A DNA stretch of 64,000 bases from assembly GCA_047456315.1 (NCBI GenBank), contig CP179889.1, positions 448,776-512,775 of the forward strand, in the 5' to 3' direction. The translations under genes were made by a program, and so were the position numbers. Numbering within the stretch: the first letter of the stretch is position 1; each line of letters starts with the position of its first letter. Source of the stretch: Candidatus Nealsonbacteria bacterium. Lineage in GTDB: Bacteria > Patescibacteriota > Minisyncoccia > Minisyncoccales > JANBVM01. This document shows, piece after piece, positions 3,023 through 30,727 of the stretch. A model generated the notes under the pieces. That model was not told the DNA's origin. It made no database searches and saw only the letters and a program-made list of their open reading frames with translations.

Positions 3023-3589
3023 CTACTTGATTATCACTTTGTAGGTCAGGATTTTAATCGGTTCTCCCACCCAAGATCTCTCGTAAGAAAACCTTATTTC
3101 TACATCTCCTTTTTTCAGAGTAAGGAATTTGAAAAATTCTTGCCCTCCGACGCCAAAGGGAACTTCTATCTCTGACTCTTCTGAGCCTTCAATTCCTACA
3201 ACTCCTTCATCGATTTGATTCTGCACCAATTGTTCTTGAGCCTGATTGCTGTCAATAATGTCTCTTGCTCCATCCGAAGCGCCAGGCGATTGAATTCTCC
3301 CCTTTTCCAAAGACATTGACATTCTTGTATTTTCCTGAAAATCAGGGACATAATTTTTTTCAATCAGTTGAAGATAGTTTTGATCAAACTCTATTGTCCA
3401 CTGATAGCCAGTAGTAAGATTGGCCTCCAAAACTATTTCAAAGTCCTCGCCAACCTCCTTTTCTATTATTTGAATGCCGGCGTCTCTTGTGCTTTCTGTT
3501 GCTGGAGCAACGATATAATGGTTTGCTCCGTAGCTTACACCGACAACAATAAGCAATGAAATAAAGACAGTAATGATTAACTTTAACAT
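3023..3589 (-). CDS. Chagasin-family (I42) cysteine-peptidase inhibitor-like secreted protein
   Basis: 188 aa with a signal/anchor helix. NLTTGYQW matches the chagasin NPTTGYxW motif. C-terminal GVGGQEFFKFLTLKKGDVEIRFSYERSW matches the family's G.G...F.F.....G...I.F.Y.R.W pattern. Confidence 0.7.
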   Translation of the reverse strand: MLKLIITVFISLLIVVGVSYGANHYIVAPATESTRDAGIQIIEKEVGEDFEIVLEANLTTGYQWTIEFDQNYLQLIEKNYVPDFQENTRMSMSLEKGRIQSPGASDGARDIIDSNQAQEQLVQNQIDEGVVGIEGSEESEIEVPFGVGGQEFFKFLTLKKGDVEIRFSYERSWVGEPIKILTYKVIIK

Positions 3590-3629
3590 GTTTTTTTAAT
3601 AATTAATTATATACATCTTAATGACCTTT

Positions 3630-3666
3630 CTACTTAATATTACGATTGAGAGAGAGAAAGGTAACA
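3630..3666 (-). promoter_or_regulatory. ECF-type promoter GTTACC-N15-CGTAAT
   Basis: Hexamers at 3660-3665 and 3639-3644, about 49 nt upstream of the start at 3589. The 37-nt block is near-identical to 2857-2893. Confidence 0.55.
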
Positions 3667-3692
3667 AAAAAACCGCCTTTTTGGCGATTTTT
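3664..3692 (-). terminator. Intrinsic terminator
   Basis: Minus-strand ATCGCC-AAAAA-GGCGGT hairpin followed by a T7 run. Confidence 0.55.
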
Positions 3693-3694
3693 AT

Positions 3695-3712
3695 GCCTCT
3701 CGGTCTCTCGAA
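3695..3712 (-). repeat. 18-nt conserved motif ahead of a terminator, copy A (TTCGAGAGACCGAGAGGC on the minus strand)
   Basis: Plus strand GCCTCTCGGTCTCTCGAA. Related copies at 7824-7841 and 30673-30690, each immediately 5' of a terminator on the minus strand. Confidence 0.6.
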
Positions 3713-3766
3713 AGCCTCACAACTTGGCTCCCCTGGTGGGACGATGTTCGAACCTGTTTGGCTGCC

Positions 3767-3997
3767 TTATAGCTCTATTACTTTATCGCTAAACATAGAC
3801 TCTATCTTTATTTTACCTGTTCCAGAAACTACCTTTCCAATAATATCTGTATCTAACTCAGTAACAACATTATCAGCATCTTTGGAAGAAACCGACAAGA
3901 TAAAACCTATGCCACAATTAAATGTCTTATACATTTCCTCGTCAGAAACCCCTCTTTTGTATAATTCTTTAAAGATATTCTGCGGTTCTAATTTATG
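3767..3997 (-). pseudogene. purM: 3' remnant of purM (AIR synthetase); C-terminal ~76 codons only
   Basis: Minus-frame translation HKLEPQNIFKELYKRGVSDEEMYKTFNCGIGFILSVSSKDADNVVTELDTDIIGKVVSGTGKIKIESMFSDKVIEL*. The EEM.rTFNCGiGm block is the conserved PurM C-terminus. There is no upstream PurM sequence; the frame hits a stop at the end of the neighbouring gene (4002). Confidence 0.65.
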
Positions 3998-4001
3998 AGT
4001 T

Positions 4002-4744
4002 CTATTTTTTAATTAAATTAGTTGCTATTTCTAATCGTCCTTTAAAATTTTTCTGTGTACGACCTTGCCCGTAAAAACATGGAGAAACTATACATTTTTT
4101 ACCTTTAATTAAAAGGGGTCTTCCGCTTTCAACGACGGAAGCATAATCTTTATTTTGATTTAAAAGATATAATGGTTGTCTTCCTAGAAGAATAATCAAG
4201 TCTGGATTGCAAAATTCTATTTCGGCTTCTATCAACTCCTTACTCTTTTGCCTGTCAAAATTCCTATTTTTCCAAGAGCCTTCTTTATAAACCTTTGATG
4301 CGTCTGTCATATATAAAAGACCAAAGTCTATCCCCCATTCGGCTAATTGATTTCTTATTTTGTTCCAGCTATTAAACGAAAATGGCTTTTCTATATCTAA
4401 TTGATCAGTATATTCTTTATATTTATCCTTATTATTAATAACAGGCATGAGGTGGGTTAAAAGAATTATACTTCCCGCATCTTCTATAAAGAATCTTGAC
4501 CCACTATTAAAATACGAAAACCCAATTCGTCAGTGAAAAACTTTTTACCCCACCATAGTAAATCCACACCTCTTTGTGTGGGTTTATAGTCTTGATACGA
4601 AAGAAATATTTCTAAATCTTTACTGTAGTGATTCTTGGGAAACATTCTTTGAAAAACCTTTACAGGTGAACAATCATTGTAACAACTTTTGGGATATATT
4701 TTATATTTAGCAAAAAGTTGTGCTAATTCGCTGATTTTTTTCAT
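4002..4744 (-). pseudogene. Split gene, possibly UDG-superfamily-like (tentative); frameshifted
   Basis: ORFs 4484..4744 (ends ILIVGQDSL*) and 4002..4448 lie on the same strand. Both frames are open across about 4484-4520, so a single +/-1 shift would join them. The GQDS and IILLGRQP strand motifs weakly recall uracil-DNA glycosylase-like folds. Confidence 0.35.
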
Positions 4745-4759
4745 ATTTTAATTTTATTT

Positions 4760-4966
4760 TTATAAAACAAATGAAGCAGTATAAAAAGAAAGTTGATACC
4801 ATTTTTCTATTGAATAATTGCCTTTTCTGACAAACACATCAATTTTACCTTCTCGACCTGCCCAAATTTTCTTCTCTAGTTTCACCCTATATCCTAACCT
4901 CTCAAGATTTCTTTTAATTTCCTCTTGAATCTTCCGATGGTCAGTTGCCTTAACATCTAAAAGATT
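4760..4966 (-). pseudogene. Restriction-endonuclease-fold fragment (HsdR N-terminal-like), no start codon
   Basis: 68-codon open frame without ATG: NLLDVKATDHRKIQEEIKRNLERLGYRVKLEKKIWAGREGKIDVFVRKGNYSIEKW.. The pattern L..LGY...E......G.iDv......iE.K is typical of PD-(D/E)XK restriction-type domains. Confidence 0.35.
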
Positions 4967-5060
4967 TTTTATTAAAAAAATTATTTAGGTTTCAACTAAA
5001 TGCTTTATCTAAAATTACTTGCTCTCCTATTTTTTTGTTGGCCAATTAGATTTCATAAAT

Positions 5061-6008
5061 TTATACAGTAAAACTCGCCCTCCTTACACTGGGAGTATAT
5101 AGCTTGGAAAAATCTACATTAAGAAAGTTGCCCAAAGAAAACTTTTCGCCAATCTTTTCTTCTAAAAGCGTATGCCTTCTTGTGTCAATGATCGTCTTTA
5201 TCATTACATATACTAGAATACACTCCTCGTAATCTCTTTGAAAGTCAAAAGGTTTTTGGGCTCTTAAAATCCGACCCGTTGGTACCATTTTTCCTTCTCC
5301 ATTCTTCTTCTTTTGTTCTTCAAGGAAAGTAATGCAATCCTCAGAAGAACCAAGTGAGTGCATTTTCTTACTACCAGTTAAACCTATAGCTATGGCAAAA
5401 GGAGCGTTATAGAATCGCAACGAATGCTTGTAAGCGTTATATTCTCCTCTATCTGTAAAATCGTGCGCAAATATTAAAAGAAGCTTTTTAATGTTCTCCA
5501 GATTTTTCTTCCACTCCCCATCATTTAGTCTTGTTGAATAGATAAAGTAAAAAATCCATCTTAATAACGGAATTTCTATTTTCTTACCTTCTATCTCGGT
5601 TTTTATTTTCTCCGTAAAAATCTCTGAAGAATTAGTTATCTTTTCTATTCTTTTGTAAGTTTCAGAATAAAAGGGTGTATTTCTGTCATTCGAGAAAGTA
5701 AGAGCTACCCACAAATCTCTATTATCATGCTTTGATATAGCGAAAATAATTTCAAAGAGCGTTTCTATCATTTGAAAATACAAAAAATGCAATTCAGTTC
5801 GAATAGTACGCTTGAAATCCCCATCTATTGTTTCTTCCGTATTTTTTATCAAACTTGATTTAAGCTGATCAAAATCATCATGAGAGTTTTTTAAAAGCAT
5901 TATCCTGTATAGCCAATAGTCCGGATCATACATCCGATAAAATTCCTTTTGAAGATTGTCCAAATCGTTTACAGTAAAAGTCTTTAATTTTTTCTTTGGT
6001 ATGTGCAT
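5061..6008 (-). CDS. Hypothetical protein (defence-islet context)
   Basis: 315-aa ORF with no recognisable motif. N-terminus MHIPKKKLKTF echoes the repeated WPTKKL module. Confidence 0.55.
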   Translation of the reverse strand: MHIPKKKLKTFTVNDLDNLQKEFYRMYDPDYWLYRIMLLKNSHDDFDQLKSSLIKNTEETIDGDFKRTIRTELHFLYFQMIETLFEIIFAISKHDNRDLWVALTFSNDRNTPFYSETYKRIEKITNSSEIFTEKIKTEIEGKKIEIPLLRWIFYFIYSTRLNDGEWKKNLENIKKLLLIFAHDFTDRGEYNAYKHSLRFYNAPFAIAIGLTGSKKMHSLGSSEDCITFLEEQKKKNGEGKMVPTGRILRAQKPFDFQRDYEECILVYVMIKTIIDTRRHTLLEEKIGEKFSLGNFLNVDFSKLYTPSVRRASFTV

Positions 6009-6070
6009 ACTTTATAAATTTTCTCCTAATTTTTTTGTTGGGTAAATTGACTTCATAACTTTAAGATGGT

Positions 6071-7042
6071 TTATAAGACACACGCATTACATTTTCCTTC
6101 AATAATTCCTTTATACCTTGCTTTATCTATGATTTTAGTTCTTATTTTCTCGTTTAATTCCTCACTTTGTTTTGCAAGGGTTTCAGTTTCTTCATAAAAT
6201 TTCCTTATTTTTTCTATTATTTTAGGAGAATCTCGTAATTTTTTAATAAAATCCTTTGCTACAGCTTCGGATATCATGTTCCCTTGTATCACTAATCCTG
6301 CACCACCCCAAGAGAGTTCAAAGAATTCTCCGCTTCCTCCTAGCCCTCCTAATTCTGAACTTGATTTACGGACAATAGACACAGTTGCTTCTCCGCTTGG
6401 AAAGTCAGTTAAAATTTTCCTTAAAGTAAAAGTAATCATCCGTTGATAATAAGCGCACGGCGGATTATAAGAAGGGGAACAAGAAGGAAGTTTTATTTCT
6501 TTTTTAGCTCCTTCGTTGAGTTCTTTAATAAAAGTTTTAAGTTTGTCATTATATTTATTTACGGAATCTTTCCACTTTTGATATTCACTATATAAATGTG
6601 GGTAGCCACTTTTAAGGTGTTGGTTAATATAAAGAGGAGGATTTTCTATTCGATAGATATCCCAATACGCCCGCTCTTCTTGATCTGGTAAATTTCGTGG
6701 ATCGAGAATTAATCCCGAAACTTTTGTCAGCCACTTAGAAAAATTTTCTCCTAATCTCTCGCTGTGTGGTCTACTTAATTGAATTTTTTCAAATTTATAA
6801 TTTCGGTAAGCATAGTATGTAGTAATAAAAATTAAAACTATCGTTGATATTGCCTGAATTGCACCTGAATTTTTATTTAAAAAATCTATTTTCAAATAAA
6901 TAATACACCCAATTTCTACAACAATAATAAGAACTAAAATTATATCTATCCATTTCGGAATTTTGAATTGTAATTTTGCATTTTGCATTTTGATTTTTGA
7001 ATTTTCATCAAACCTCACTAATTTTTTTGTTGGCCAAGGCAT
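6071..7042 (-). CDS. Hypothetical membrane protein
   Basis: 323 aa. N-terminus MPWPTKKLVRF, two predicted TM helices (IDIILVLIIVVEIGCIIYL, AISTIVLIFITTYYAY), coiled-coil C-terminus. Confidence 0.55.
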   Translation of the reverse strand: MPWPTKKLVRFDENSKIKMQNAKLQFKIPKWIDIILVLIIVVEIGCIIYLKIDFLNKNSGAIQAISTIVLIFITTYYAYRNYKFEKIQLSRPHSERLGENFSKWLTKVSGLILDPRNLPDQEERAYWDIYRIENPPLYINQHLKSGYPHLYSEYQKWKDSVNKYNDKLKTFIKELNEGAKKEIKLPSCSPSYNPPCAYYQRMITFTLRKILTDFPSGEATVSIVRKSSSELGGLGGSGEFFELSWGGAGLVIQGNMISEAVAKDFIKKLRDSPKIIEKIRKFYEETETLAKQSEELNEKIRTKIIDKARYKGIIEGKCNACVL

Positions 7043-7168
7043 AATGTTATTTTCTTAAGAATTTCTTTATTTTCTTTCTTAATCGGCTTAATTCCTCAAA
7101 TTCTCGTTTATGTAATTTGCTTTGTTTGTTAACTAACCAAATAAATAGACTTTACCCCACCCCGCTAC

Positions 7169-7765
7169 TCACTGTTTTTTCTCTGCTAAGCGTATATATT
7201 TAATAAGTCTAAAACCATCAATTAGTTCAATAGGCTTATCTTCTGTAAATTGCTTAGCTTCAAGCGTAAATTTGTTTGTGGTTATAAAGTATCCTTTACC
7301 ATCAGCTAAATGGTCAGCAATAGCTCCGTAAAACTCTCTTAGTGCCACTACGCCAACCTTTGAGCTAGTATATTTCTTACATTGAATATAATGTTTGATG
7401 CCGTCTTTTTCGGCAATCACATCAATTCCGCCATTGATGTGAGCACCAGTCACTTTTGTTTTGTATCCGAGCCTTGAAAATAAATCAGCAATATATTGCT
7501 CAAATTCCCCAAAATTCATTCCTTGCAGCCAATGCAATAATTCTCTATCAGAACGCCACCGCTTGCCTTTCTTAAATTTTGCTTTTTTCCAAAAAGTACT
7601 ACCAACAAAGATAATTATAACAACAGCGGCTCCGTATGTAACCCAGTGCCAAAAATTAGCCCTATCTGTAAACCACAGAAGAAGTACATAGATAATATAA
7701 AAAATGCCCAACCTCCACAAAGTATCAAGAACAATATCGCTTAATGAATTTTTTCTTCTTGCCAT
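7169..7765 (-). CDS. Membrane-anchored Mrr-like restriction endonuclease domain protein
   Basis: 198 aa with two N-terminal TM helices. FEQYIADLFSRLGYKTKVTG...GGIDVIAEKDG..HYIQCKKY matches the Mrr_cat D-(D/E)xK core. Confidence 0.7.
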   Translation of the reverse strand: MARRKNSLSDIVLDTLWRLGIFYIIYVLLLWFTDRANFWHWVTYGAAVVIIIFVGSTFWKKAKFKKGKRWRSDRELLHWLQGMNFGEFEQYIADLFSRLGYKTKVTGAHINGGIDVIAEKDGIKHYIQCKKYTSSKVGVVALREFYGAIADHLADGKGYFITTNKFTLEAKQFTEDKPIELIDGFRLIKYIRLAEKKQ

Positions 7766-7794
7766 ATAATTTTTAGTATCACTATTATTCTACC

Positions 7795-7822
7795 AAAAAA
7801 CCGCCTAATTGGCGATTTTTTG
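7795..7822 (-). terminator. Intrinsic terminator downstream of tRNA-Gln
   Basis: Minus-strand AATCGCC-AATTA-GGCGGTT hairpin plus a T run. Close sequence relative of the 3664-3692 terminator. Confidence 0.55.
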
Positions 7823-7823
7823 T

Positions 7824-7841
7824 GCCTCTCGGTCACTCGAA
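7824..7841 (-). repeat. 18-nt conserved motif, copy B
   Basis: Plus strand GCCTCTCGGTCACTCGAA. Lies 16-33 nt 3' of tRNA-Gln on the minus strand and directly 5' of the terminator. Confidence 0.6.
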
Positions 7842-7856
7842 CTGCGCTCAACGATG

Positions 7857-7927
7857 CTGCGGGGCTAGGATTCGAACCTAGATCGAGCACTTCAAAGGCG
7901 CTTGTCCTACCATTAGACGACCCCGCA
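7857..7927 (-). tRNA. tRNA-Gln (anticodon TTG)
   Basis: Hand-folded cloverleaf: acceptor TGCGGGG/CCCCGCA, D arm GTCTAATGGTAGGAC, anticodon stem AGCGC/GTGCT with loop CTTTGAA, T arm CTAGG-TTCGAAT-CCTAG. No encoded CCA. Confidence 0.9.
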
Positions 7928-7934
7928 ATGCGTT

Positions 7935-9059
7935 TTAAACGTTTAAAAACTCTACCACCTCTACTACTGCCAATTCCAAAGGCAACTGTGGTATTGAAGC
8001 ATATCTTATCTTATTTTGAGCTTCAAGAAAAGTGCTTAAAATTTTTCTTAAATCTTCTTGCTCAAACAATGACATTTGCTTTTTAAGCACAACTATTTCT
8101 TCCTTTGTCAAACCAGTCAAATAATCTTCTGAACTCACAGGATTCCCCTCCCCCATTATTTTCAAAATCAATCCTTTTCTCAAATAATTAATCAAACTTT
8201 TAGAAAATTCTTCTAAATCCAAACCCTTCTCACTAACTTCATTTAAATAATGAATAGCTTCAAAAGTTTTTTTATTACTCAAAAAACCAGTAAATTTACT
8301 GACCATTTCAATTTCCACCAATCCTAATAAATCCTTAATATCTTCAGCTTTAATTTCATTTTTAGAACCATCATAAAGAATTGCAACCTGATTTAACAAA
8401 CCTTCAGCATCTCTCATAGCGCCTGAAGAATTTAAAGCAATTAATTCCAGAGCTGGTTCTCCAATCTTAATGTTTTCTTTTTTTGAAAGAATCAACAATC
8501 TTTTAATAATTTCAGGTAAAGTGGATTTTCTAAAATCAAACCTCTGGCATCTTGAAATGATTGTTGAAATCATTTTATGAATCTCTGTTGTAGCTAAAAC
8601 AAAAATAGCATGAGCTGGAGGCTCTTCCAGTGTTTTTAAAAGCGCATTAGCTGCTTCTTTAGTTAATTGATGAGATTCATCAATTATAAATACTTTGTAC
8701 TTTGATTTTGTTGGAGAAAACCTAATTCCGTCTTTTAACTCCCTTATATCATCAATTCCCCTATGGGATGCTGCATCAATTTCAATTAAATCCATTGCCT
8801 GTCCTTTCACAATTTCATTACAAGAAGAGCACTTGTTGCAGGGTTCAAATTGTCCTTGCTTTCTGTTTTCACAATTAACAGCCTTAGCCAACAAACGAGC
8901 TATTGTTGTTTTTCCTGTTCCTTTTGGCCCGGAAAACAAATAAGCATGAGAAACCGTTTCAGAAGAAATTGCATTAGTTAATGTTTTAACAACATGTTGC
9001 TGGCCAATAATTTCAGCAAAGGTCTGAGGACGATATTTACGATATAAAACGAGAGTCAT
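7935..9059 (-). CDS. dnaX: DNA polymerase III subunit gamma/tau (short form)
   Basis: 374 aa. YRPQTFAEIIGQ, Walker A GPKGTGKTT, zinc module CNKCSSC, DExH-like IIDESHQL, SRC sensor ISRCQRF. Confidence 0.9.
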   Translation of the reverse strand: MTLVLYRKYRPQTFAEIIGQQHVVKTLTNAISSETVSHAYLFSGPKGTGKTTIARLLAKAVNCENRKQGQFEPCNKCSSCNEIVKGQAMDLIEIDAASHRGIDDIRELKDGIRFSPTKSKYKVFIIDESHQLTKEAANALLKTLEEPPAHAIFVLATTEIHKMISTIISRCQRFDFRKSTLPEIIKRLLILSKKENIKIGEPALELIALNSSGAMRDAEGLLNQVAILYDGSKNEIKAEDIKDLLGLVEIEMVSKFTGFLSNKKTFEAIHYLNEVSEKGLDLEEFSKSLINYLRKGLILKIMGEGNPVSSEDYLTGLTKEEIVVLKKQMSLFEQEDLRKILSTFLEAQNKIRYASIPQLPLELAVVEVVEFLNV

Positions 9060-30668: not shown

Positions 30669-30672
30669 TAAT

Positions 30673-30690
30673 GCATCTCGGTCTCTCGAA
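30673..30690 (-). repeat. 18-nt conserved motif, copy C
   Basis: Plus strand GCATCTCGGTCTCTCGAA. Here it pairs with the adjacent CCGAG to form a CTCGGT/ACCGAG hairpin. Confidence 0.6.
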
Positions 30691-30703
30691 CCGAGCACTA
30701 ACC

Positions 30704-30727
30704 TGCTCCAGCGACAGGACTCGAACC
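30704..30727 (-). other. Orphan tRNA 3'-end-like fragment (T loop plus acceptor 3' strand)
   Basis: Minus strand GGTTCGAGTCCTGTCGCTGGAGCA resembles T-loop/T-stem/acceptor/discriminator. No matching 5' half (TCCAGCG) upstream. Confidence 0.45.

Follow-up and report, generated by a model that had tools for sequence, protein, structure and literature searches.

An 18-nt motif, TTCGAGWGACCGAGAKGC, occurs three times on the minus strand of a 64,000-nt stretch of a Candidatus Nealsonbacteria genome (contig CP179889.1, positions 448,776 to 512,775; this whole stretch is hereafter called the window), at 3695-3712 (copy A), 7824-7841 (copy B) and 30673-30690 (copy C). The element is real and conserved, and had not been filed before. 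It forms the core of a ~35-nt segment, CAGGCTAGTGCTCGGTTCGAGNGACCGAGANGCAT, which natively follows tRNA-Gln and tRNA-Asn genes in many Patescibacteria (bacteria of the candidate phyla radiation, CPR). The sequences neighbouring it are explained by a known process, integration into tRNA genes, through an unusual agent, large serine recombinases (LSRs) whose own attachment site (attP) mimics the tRNA T arm. Our best explanation as a whole, to which we give a probability of about 0.6, combines a hairpin of the tRNA flank with scars of LSR integration: the motif would form the top and the 3' strand of a short hairpin inside the segment, and copy A would be a junction of the attR type, the P arm of attP joined to the flank, at the far end of a segment without recombinase.

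The three copies, first reported in a preliminary description of the window, are its sole matches, even when 3 mismatches are allowed. Three are observed where 0.05 is expected, none of 100 shuffles reaches this number (up to 3 mismatches, whole window), and an nhmmer profile search of the window returned the same three copies only. The motif as first delimited is real but too short: upon alignment of the three sites, similarity extends over ~35 nt, from tRNA-like ..GGAGC/GCAGC onward. It is absent from the trailers of the other five tRNAs of the window. In Rfam, only tRNAs reach the gathering threshold, no family matches the motif or its flank, and nothing meaningful was found around copy C at E<=10. 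A hidden or permuted tRNA, a tmRNA or another known RNA, composite modules included, was also considered, and ARAGORN and Rfam found none. None of the six tRNA genes of the window encodes a 3' CCA; some tRNA-Asn genes of relatives do (loci L067 and L089), and the CCA then lies within the flank allele of copy A (..GGGGAGCCAAG..).

Beyond the window, too, the motif family is real. Exact matching against one genome per species yielded 36 loci, 11 of which are in low-GC Patescibacteria (Nealsonbacteria, Staskawiczbacteria, Parcubacteria, Saccharibacteria); the others are high-GC and inside coding sequence, as expected by chance. With a longer pattern, used for metagenomes, 71 loci were found, every one with 28-45% G+C. 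A profile search with the collected copies brought the family to 115 copies, 107 of them distinct, from 83 sources (82 loci and the window), with the consensus (G/C)(G/A)AGCAGGCTAGTGCTCGG-TTCGAGNGACCGAGANGC-AT. A phage origin of the motif was rejected, since the four IMG/VR matches are high-GC, lie in coding sequence and are due to chance. In 72 of 77 cases, the motif and the upstream open reading frame (ORF) are on one strand, a count to be read against the strong gene strand bias of these genomes. In all, more than 100 copies are known from low-GC Patescibacteria contigs.

Among the 31 tRNA genes found in motif-bearing loci and the window, 22 are for Gln or Asn. Each such tRNA-Gln or tRNA-Asn precedes the motif and shares its strand, at a distance of 0 to 13 kb. 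The segment lies directly 3' of the tRNA in L010, L029, L045, L055, L057, L063, L091, L108 and at window copy B, and 1-13 kb downstream of it in L005, L067, L077, L085, L089 and L090; in Saccharibacteria, the motif is 27 or ~146 nt from the tRNA end. In the loci with a distant motif, the tRNA's own trailer is devoid of it, which is what an insertion between the tRNA and its flank would yield. The arrangement of a tRNA upstream and the repeat at the far boundary, on the same strand, is seen in the window (copy A is 4.1 kb from the tRNA-Gln) and in a dozen relatives. In one of these loci, an RVT_1 reverse-transcriptase gene (L090:3188-4111, plus strand) lies within the 5.3-kb segment that separates tRNA-Asn from its displaced flank.

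Copy B represents the native state. As initially described, it lies just past tRNA-Gln(UUG), its motif starting 15 nt after G73. The dnaX-tRNA-Gln arrangement is orthologous in L029, L085, L119 and L120, and L029, taken from a complete genome of Nealsonbacteria, matches the window in its four upstream genes (37-83% amino-acid identity), which are followed by tRNA-Gln and the motif. By these comparisons, copy B is a native tRNA-Gln with its flank, orthologous to that of L029. Its inner allele (GGCGCAGT..), with the odd inner flank ..GAGCGCAG.., is also present in the tRNA-Gln flanks of L116, L120 and L076, and on this sequence evidence is a natural allele. Plus-strand ORFs run antisense through copy A (3621-3998, 125 aa) and copy B (7820-8086, 88 aa); they are probably spurious, and gene callers occasionally call similar ORFs of 35-92 aa at such sites in public data.

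The agent of the displacements is best seen in L085. In this locus, a tRNA-Gln is followed by the gene for a 489-aa LSR (Resolvase, Recombinase and Zn_ribbon_recom domains), which reads toward the tRNA and ends inside it, then by a restriction-modification pair and other cargo, and after 9.3 kb TTTTGGTTCTAACATCGTCCCATAACCTCAGCAAC is joined to the motif. More than 3800 homologues of this LSR were found at E<=1e-20, and those with a source name are all from Patescibacteria lineages. Most of them end in an antisense-tRNA peptide such as ..EMLRDLDSNQD..LQRPLSYH, a tail that marks the copy as being in the integrated state. In a minority, the tail is the one that the P arm encodes (DDVRT/FRT), reading ..EMLRVMDDIRTRLKLET or ..MLRAMEIFRTCLMALTNY. 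On two contigs with the minority tail (L112 and L115), a replication-initiator (Rep) gene adjoins the LSR gene, and neither a tRNA nor the motif is present. The 3' end of the LSR gene there reads AAACGGGTTCTAATGTCGTCCATGACCCGCAGCA|TTTCTAC.., which, judging from its sequence, is the attP (P arm and P') of free elements. The left arm of this attP, called ‘type I’, is next to at least 53 of the 107 motif copies, window copy A included.

Joining the attL and attR sequences of L085 at their common GTTGC restores an in-frame LSR of 507 aa, ending in ..CEMLLRLWDDVRTKIEIDRNMFIF* and having the architecture of P0009. Together with the position of attP next to the recombinase gene in L112 and L115, and with the hybrid attL/attR junctions of L085, this indicates that integration swaps the last 12-30 residues of the LSR, attP lying in its own 3' coding end. 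The P arm is a lookalike of the tRNA T arm in which the GGTTC(T/G)AA box is 5 bp farther from the core: in the left half, to which this comparison applies, it lies 20-27 nt from G73 in P arms, versus 15-22 nt in the tRNA, while the offset of a similar box in the right half is 6 nt, not 5. When copy A is aligned with L027, the aligner sets a 5-nt gap exactly at CATCG of copy A. A zinc-ribbon-domain (ZD) box placed 5 bp outward in attP relative to the host site (attB) is a hallmark of serine integrase sites (PMC3783163), and the shift observed in the P arm agrees with this published rule. The native position of the segment, the P-arm origin of these sequences, the 5-bp offset and the in-frame recombinase tail are established. 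The shared core, GCAGCA/GGAGCA/GCAAC, would place the crossover at the tRNA 3' end.

Members of this LSR family (L085, L112, L115 and L116-L122 among them) target the 3' ends of tRNA-Gln, -Asn, -Leu and -Trp genes, and the family, as far as its sequences tell, is very large and apparently undescribed. A recombinase gene is found within the island in L085, L116 and L119-L122. In 6 of the 8 elements fetched, a Rep gene (REP_ORF2-G2P or Phage_rep_O) precedes the LSR gene. By analogy, this type of Rep hints at inovirus-like elements, which have been reported in CPR bacteria (PMC6813254). Our proposal is that the 3' end of tRNA-Gln or tRNA-Asn would serve as attB for this very large family of LSR and Rep elements, with the conserved segment on the far (B') side. 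As attP would overlap the 3' end of the element's recombinase gene, with a P arm mimicking the T arm, integration would split the tRNA from its flank and leave the P arm joined to the flank as attR junction.

Copy A has the appearance of such a junction. The sequence AGGTTCGAACATCGT that precedes it had been correctly noted, but as a match to the tRNA-Gln T loop: the left neighbour, AAACAGGTTCGAACATCGTCC..GGAGC, is the P arm of attP, not a tRNA. Read antisense, it gives the recombinase-tail-like ..WDDVRTCLAAL*, as in the tails of P0009 and P0015. The CATCGT that copies A and B had been said to have in common is a coincidence, since in copy A it corresponds to the 5-nt spacer by which the T-loop-like box of attP is moved outward. 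From TTCGAG rightward, copy A and L027 share ~93% identity, across the terminator and as far as the orthologous gene of an I42 inhibitor (chagasin-type); left of TTCGAG, the place of the window's P arm is taken in L027 by a tRNA-Asn fragment. Judging from relatives, an element would have entered a fragment-type pseudo-attB here and its recombinase would have been lost later.

The segment between copies B and A is not syntenic with L029, in which the downstream genes differ. An empty site could be compared only in parts, as L029 shares the left side and L027 only the right flank of copy A, no single genome joining both flanks. Pfam found no recombinase among the ORFs of this segment, and tblastn with the LSR found none in the whole window. 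A split recombinase gene of the SSV type at the left end of the island was rejected, its space being taken by the Mrr-like gene, on the other strand. Compared with the cargo of the fetched recombinase elements, the island genes have no homology except for one Mrr-like match in L004. Two unknown genes of the island (5061-6008 and 6071-7042, minus strand, 315 and 323 aa) are apparent tandem paralogues, and direct repeats (D1/D3), ~1000-1034 nt apart, are found at both gene ends.

Copy C lies, as had been described, after an orphan tRNA 3' fragment. This fragment, GGTTCGAGTCCTGTCGCTGGAG, matches the 3' ends of relatives' tRNA-Asn genes, and L103 has the identical type of junction, next to a ClpB C-terminus that is 84% identical. 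Copy C is probably a truncated tRNA-Asn 3' end with its flank, which would make it a pseudo-attB or an older scar. Sequence comparison thus gives an orthologue of each of the three sites in relatives: L029 for copy B, L027 for the right flank of copy A and L103 for copy C. The coordinates are collected in Table 1.

Table 1. Features at the three motif sites of the window, and recombinase genes of the reference elements (positions of the latter refer to their own loci).
Feature	Position	Strand	Remarks
Hairpin + T-run after copy A	3666..3692	-	predicted fold; D2 repeat with the copy B hairpin
Copy A flank, CAAGTTGTGAGGCT-TTCGAGAGACCGAGAGGC-AT	3693..3726	-	motif 3695-3712
P arm of LSR attP, AAACAGGTTCGAACATCGTCCCACCAGGGGAGC	3727..3759	-	T-arm mimic, 5-nt spacer; matches L112/L115 attP
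Accessory segment, 4.1 kb	3760..7786	-	Mrr-like restriction endonuclease, two unknown genes, 86-aa ORF, UDG-like gene, 55-aa ORF (Pfam)
Hairpin + T-run after copy B, AAAAAATCGCCAATTAGGCGGTTTTTT	7787..7821	-	predicted fold
Copy B, native tRNA-Gln 3' flank, CATCGTTGAGCGCAG-TTCGAGTGACCGAGAGGC-AC	7822..7856	-	motif 7824-7841; ‘GCGCAG’ inner-flank allele
tRNA-Gln(UUG), no encoded CCA	7856..7927 (start 7856/7857)	-	B half of the attachment site; ARAGORN; Rfam tRNA 62 bits
Second-type hairpin + T-run after copy C, TTAACCCGATATTTCGGGTTTTTAA	30644..30668	-	predicted fold
Copy C canonical flank, CAGGTTAGTGCTCGG-TTCGAGAGACCGAGATGC-AT	30671..30705	-	motif 30673-30690
tRNA-Asn-like 3' fragment (T loop to G73), GGTTCGAGTCCTGTCGCTGGAG	30706..30727	-	10 nt after ClpB-like stop codon
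L085 LSR	L085:3744-5213		
L112 LSR	L112:5534-7039		
L115 LSR	L115:4611-6125		

Conservation and covariation of the segment itself were analyzed on 25 copies outside the selection made by the exact-match scan. Their invariant positions include G at +8, G at +10, TT at +16-17, and GAC and GA within GACCGA (+23..+28); T+9 and C+26 are near-invariant. Positions +11..+15 change jointly with +29..+34: CTCGG goes with GA(N)GC or GCCGC, AGCCT with AAGGC, and CGCCG with ACGGCG. In the register called R2 (TTCG/CGAG stem with a lower stem and an AGNGAC loop), 78.5% of the cells are paired and 15 are double-change cells, with the pairs CG/GC/GU at 18-35 and GC/UA at 19-34. Only 2-3 of 500 shuffles reach the R2 score, which is above every slid control. 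In copy A, the R2 hairpin GGCTTTCG/CGAGAGGC (3695-3716) has 7 of 8 pairs. An alternative register, R1, gives the hairpin CTCGGT/ACCGAG, which is present in copy C at 30677-30695; it was rejected as a conserved feature, being impossible in copies A and B and devoid of covariation. Among these 25 related sequences, compensatory changes are thus seen in R2 and not in R1. The CGAGAG described as an internal direct repeat is no repeat unit but the 3' strand of the hairpin.

The motif hairpin is not itself an intrinsic terminator, as in the three window copies it is followed by AT or AC and an A-run, not by Ts; in the L106 lineage, a T-run does come after it. Each window copy is followed, 2-8 nt on, by a separate G+C-rich hairpin with a T-run that fits the definition of an intrinsic terminator, as the preliminary description had it; the near-identity it noted between the A and B terminators is a 29-nt direct repeat (D2) with 90% identity. 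The terminator type of copy C, TTAACCCGATATTTCGGGTTTTTAA, also follows the motif in L004, L029, L056 and L060. The hairpin would act in the transcript, as a 3'-trailer or 3'-untranslated-region structure together with the following terminator, rather than as a recombinase site. On sequence grounds it is most likely a sequence-specific RNA 3'-end element acting between the end of a tRNA or gene and the terminator, and its specificity (TTCG/CGAG stem, AGNGAC loop) implies that it probably binds a factor. Among the roles first suggested for the motif, that of a tRNA-trailer element is the one that fits its native place 3' of tRNA-Gln/Asn and its compensatory changes, with a function in processing or stability that remains putative. 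An independent small RNA has no support, as no promoter of its own is evident and Rfam gives no match. Scars of an integrative element account for the tRNA-like sequence beside copy A and probably for copy C, but not for the motif, which belongs to the host side of the junction and is found neither in the attP-bearing free elements nor in the flanks used by related recombinases.

Several points weigh against this explanation. The window holds neither a recombinase nor an attL relic, so that the history of copy A is deduced from relatives. The inner flank of copy A (+3..+15) differs from that of L027 at ~9 positions despite the 93%-identical right flank, which suggests recombination within the repeated motif-terminator module. 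The motif is absent from several tRNA-Gln flanks (L119, L120, L122), hence not universal. In addition, the window, L108 and L063 each hold a tRNA with motif and also a P arm with motif downstream, an arrangement that a single LSR integration at that tRNA cannot produce. As to the hairpin, the 25 sequences are a small and phylogenetically related sample, the canonical form folds better in R1, where no covariation appears, and the RNA-level role, which we infer, is unproven.

Among the alternatives, the motif could serve the mobile elements, as a B' half-site or accessory site read by the serine recombinase, GACCGAGA being the part of the flank that the cognate LSR would need; its conservation would then come from reseeding or selection by the elements, not from the host. 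We consider this unlikely, even though the motif abuts the crossover, with TTCGAG at +16..+21 facing the palindromic T-loop TTCGAA at -15..-20 in a roughly symmetric site, the P' arms of attP hold a similar (C/T)(C/T)GGTTT box, and synteny breaks fall at motif sites. Indeed, closely related LSRs have integrated next to flanks without motif at tRNA-Gln (L119, L120, L122), tRNA-Leu (L117) and tRNA-Trp (L118), and L116 has a diverged form only. The recombinase does not need the motif, therefore, and an obligatory half-site was rejected on the basis of these five elements. Moreover, the offset between the P' and B' boxes is 6 nt instead of 5, GACCGA, the best-conserved part (+23..+28), is outside a 40-bp attB, the Saccharibacteria motifs lie 27 or ~146 nt from the tRNA end, and an LSR, which binds double-strand DNA, has no need of the hairpin that compensatory changes maintain.

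Two further alternatives start from the grouping of copies. At least two copies are present in 25 of the 83 sources (24 loci and the window). Within a locus their orientation is always the same, their spacing is 0.08-23 kb, mostly 0.6-4.6 kb, and often exactly one same-strand ORF separates them (GH130, GNAT acetyltransferase, BtpA, HAD hydrolase, APH, aminotransferase, YceG, or unknowns). The complete 689-kb genome CP179887.1 has only two exact matches and one variant copy, the latter in one of the two loci, so that clustering within loci is far above background. By analogy with tycheposon islands, the simplest reading of this clustering is the accretion and decay of integrations. Tandem mosaic modules, ..GACCGAGAGGCCTATGGCGTTAGGGCGACCGAGAGGGGTTCGAGTCCTACCGCCGGAG.., are found in several loci; in L083 (8480-8790, minus strand), and also in L076, L085, L102, L073, L081 and L050, they read GACCGAGAGG-CCTATGGCGTTAGGGC-GACCGAGAGG-GGTTCGAGTCCTACCGCCGGAG, a partial motif abutting a tRNA-Asn-like fragment. 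Those of L083 gave no tRNA call and no Rfam match at E<=1.

An autonomous small intergenic repeat, similar to BOX elements or miniature inverted-repeat transposable elements (MITEs), or a portable terminator-promoter cassette that spreads by itself with its tRNA-like parts, would be in line with this clustering, with the mosaic tandem modules (L083, L076, L085, L102), and with the near-identical modules (motif, ATCGCC..GGCGG hairpin and TGGTAGAAT) found in unrelated gene contexts and distant lineages. We nevertheless give it a low probability. A repeat scan of 3500-8000 shows the direct A/B repeat only, and no inverted-repeat pair flanking the copies. P arms of attP or genuine tRNA 3' ends account for the left part base by base, the single orientation per locus equals that of the upstream tRNA in tRNA-carrying loci, and the complete genome CP179887.1 has no more than the two exact matches and the variant copy.

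It is also conceivable, if doubtful, that the P arm and hairpin sites are not dead scars but working recombination and expression signals of an integron-like cassette system of Patescibacteria, the cassettes being moved in trans by serine recombinases whose genes are elsewhere. Arrays would be in one orientation, anchored at tRNA-Gln/Asn in the observed cases, with accessory genes each followed by P arm, hairpin and terminator-promoter. Such a system would account for the tRNAs that keep their motif while a P arm with motif lies downstream (window, L108, L063). Like integron attC arrays, the loci keep to one orientation, and behind each set of one or a few unrelated accessory genes lies a structured element resembling a recombination site. 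However, the R''/L''-L'/R' architecture of attC is missing and no integron integrase was seen, no search aimed at IntI having been made; the present sites are explained as attR junctions of LSRs, which should be inactive unless a directionality factor is present.

The idea that the motif is an operator in the DNA, or an upstream element of the next gene's promoter, has a still smaller chance of being correct. In about one third of the copies, a -35-like TCGCCA/TTGCCA/TTGACA with an extended -10 after it does lie 5-8 nt past the end of the motif, but the downstream genes are unrelated to each other, many copies precede other terminators or a gene directly, and compensatory changes in a hairpin are unexpected for a simple operator. 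The promoter-like sequence is part of the terminator module: the hairpin of copy B overlaps TCGCCA-17-TGGTAGAAT, facing the Mrr-like gene (promoter scan: 7815..7787, with TG before the -10), and the same hairpin module follows about one third of the copies in other loci. This conserved ‘terminator’, ATCGCCAAGAAGGCGGTTTTTTGGTAGAAT (window 7787-7815, minus strand), has a -35-like TCGCCA/TTGCCA, a 17-nt spacer and an extended -10, and from its sequence may end one transcript and start the next. Finally, protein coding on the plus strand of the window (ASRSLEPSTSLL, as a recombinase C-terminus or in a small ORF such as 3621-3998) is extremely improbable, although both variable bases are at third (wobble) codon positions and the frame of the P-arm copies runs on into a protein-like tail: this protein-like part is the P arm, i.e. 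the recombinase tail, not the motif, open frames through the motif have a median below 30 codons on both strands, and a profile of the 25 antisense peptides searched against 5.8 billion proteins retrieved 17 short ORFs (35-92 aa) without domain and no recombinase, in agreement with the initial view that the motif is outside any coding frame.

Compared with known systems, the hairpin and integration scars proposed here are closest to Islander-type islands and Prochlorococcus tycheposons, which likewise have an intact tRNA at one end, a tRNA-like repeat at the other, and accessory and defence cargo between. Reports on tRNA islands describe decayed elements and scattered partial tRNAs that pile up downstream of the tRNA (bioRxiv 10.1101/2020.12.28.424599; PMC4383910). 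Two differences are that the present elements use a large serine recombinase, not the usual tyrosine integrase, and that the far-end ‘tRNA fragment’ is not a tRNA copy but an attP arm mimicking the T arm, with its 5-bp offset, joined to the conserved host flank. The att sites share with those of LI/A118, Bxb1 and phiC31 their small size, a small shared core, hybrid attL/attR, a recombinase gene beside attP, and an outer recognition box that is 5 bp farther out in attP than in attB (PMC3783163). They differ in that the target is a tRNA 3' end and attP is inside the 3' coding end of the LSR gene, and in being known from sequence alone. As to the hairpin, a conserved sequence between tRNA 3' end and terminator is reminiscent of 3'ETS-leuZ of E. 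coli, a tRNA 3' external transcribed spacer with a function of its own. The present motif, in contrast, also follows protein-coding genes, and neither a released RNA nor a base-pairing target is in evidence here.

The flank and its P-arm partner provide a landmark for the entry and decay of serine-recombinase elements in Patescibacteria genomes, and so help to set the bounds of accessory and defence islands in a group whose genomes come almost entirely from metagenomes. A group of LSRs with attP embedded in their own gene, and a tail that changes on integration, is relevant to the natural history of these enzymes and to the tools derived from them. As a candidate cis-element, the hairpin is new. 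It is common to tRNA-Gln and tRNA-Asn, two tRNAs that in many bacteria are charged via the amidotransferase pathway, and it offers a defined target for transcript-end mapping.

Some copies have longer conserved sequences downstream. An extension, GGCCTCATATTTT..GTTCGAGAAAAAATYGCCCTACCCCGAYWGGAAATCGAAC, whose second half resembles a reverse-complemented tRNA 3' end, follows the motif in L108 (3600-3740, minus strand), L083 (480-620 and 7760-7900, both minus strand) and L070. In L089 (800-1100, minus strand) and L107 (7260-7560, plus strand), a conserved stretch of ~250 nt, gggctgagaagccaaataaacaggtgggcggcgcaaactgctc ... gttctcagccttttt, seems to be structured; at gathering score, Rfam gives no match for it. 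Unrelated to the motif, L107, a Patescibacteria contig, also carries a group I intron (RF00028, 96 bits) at 580-786 on the plus strand.

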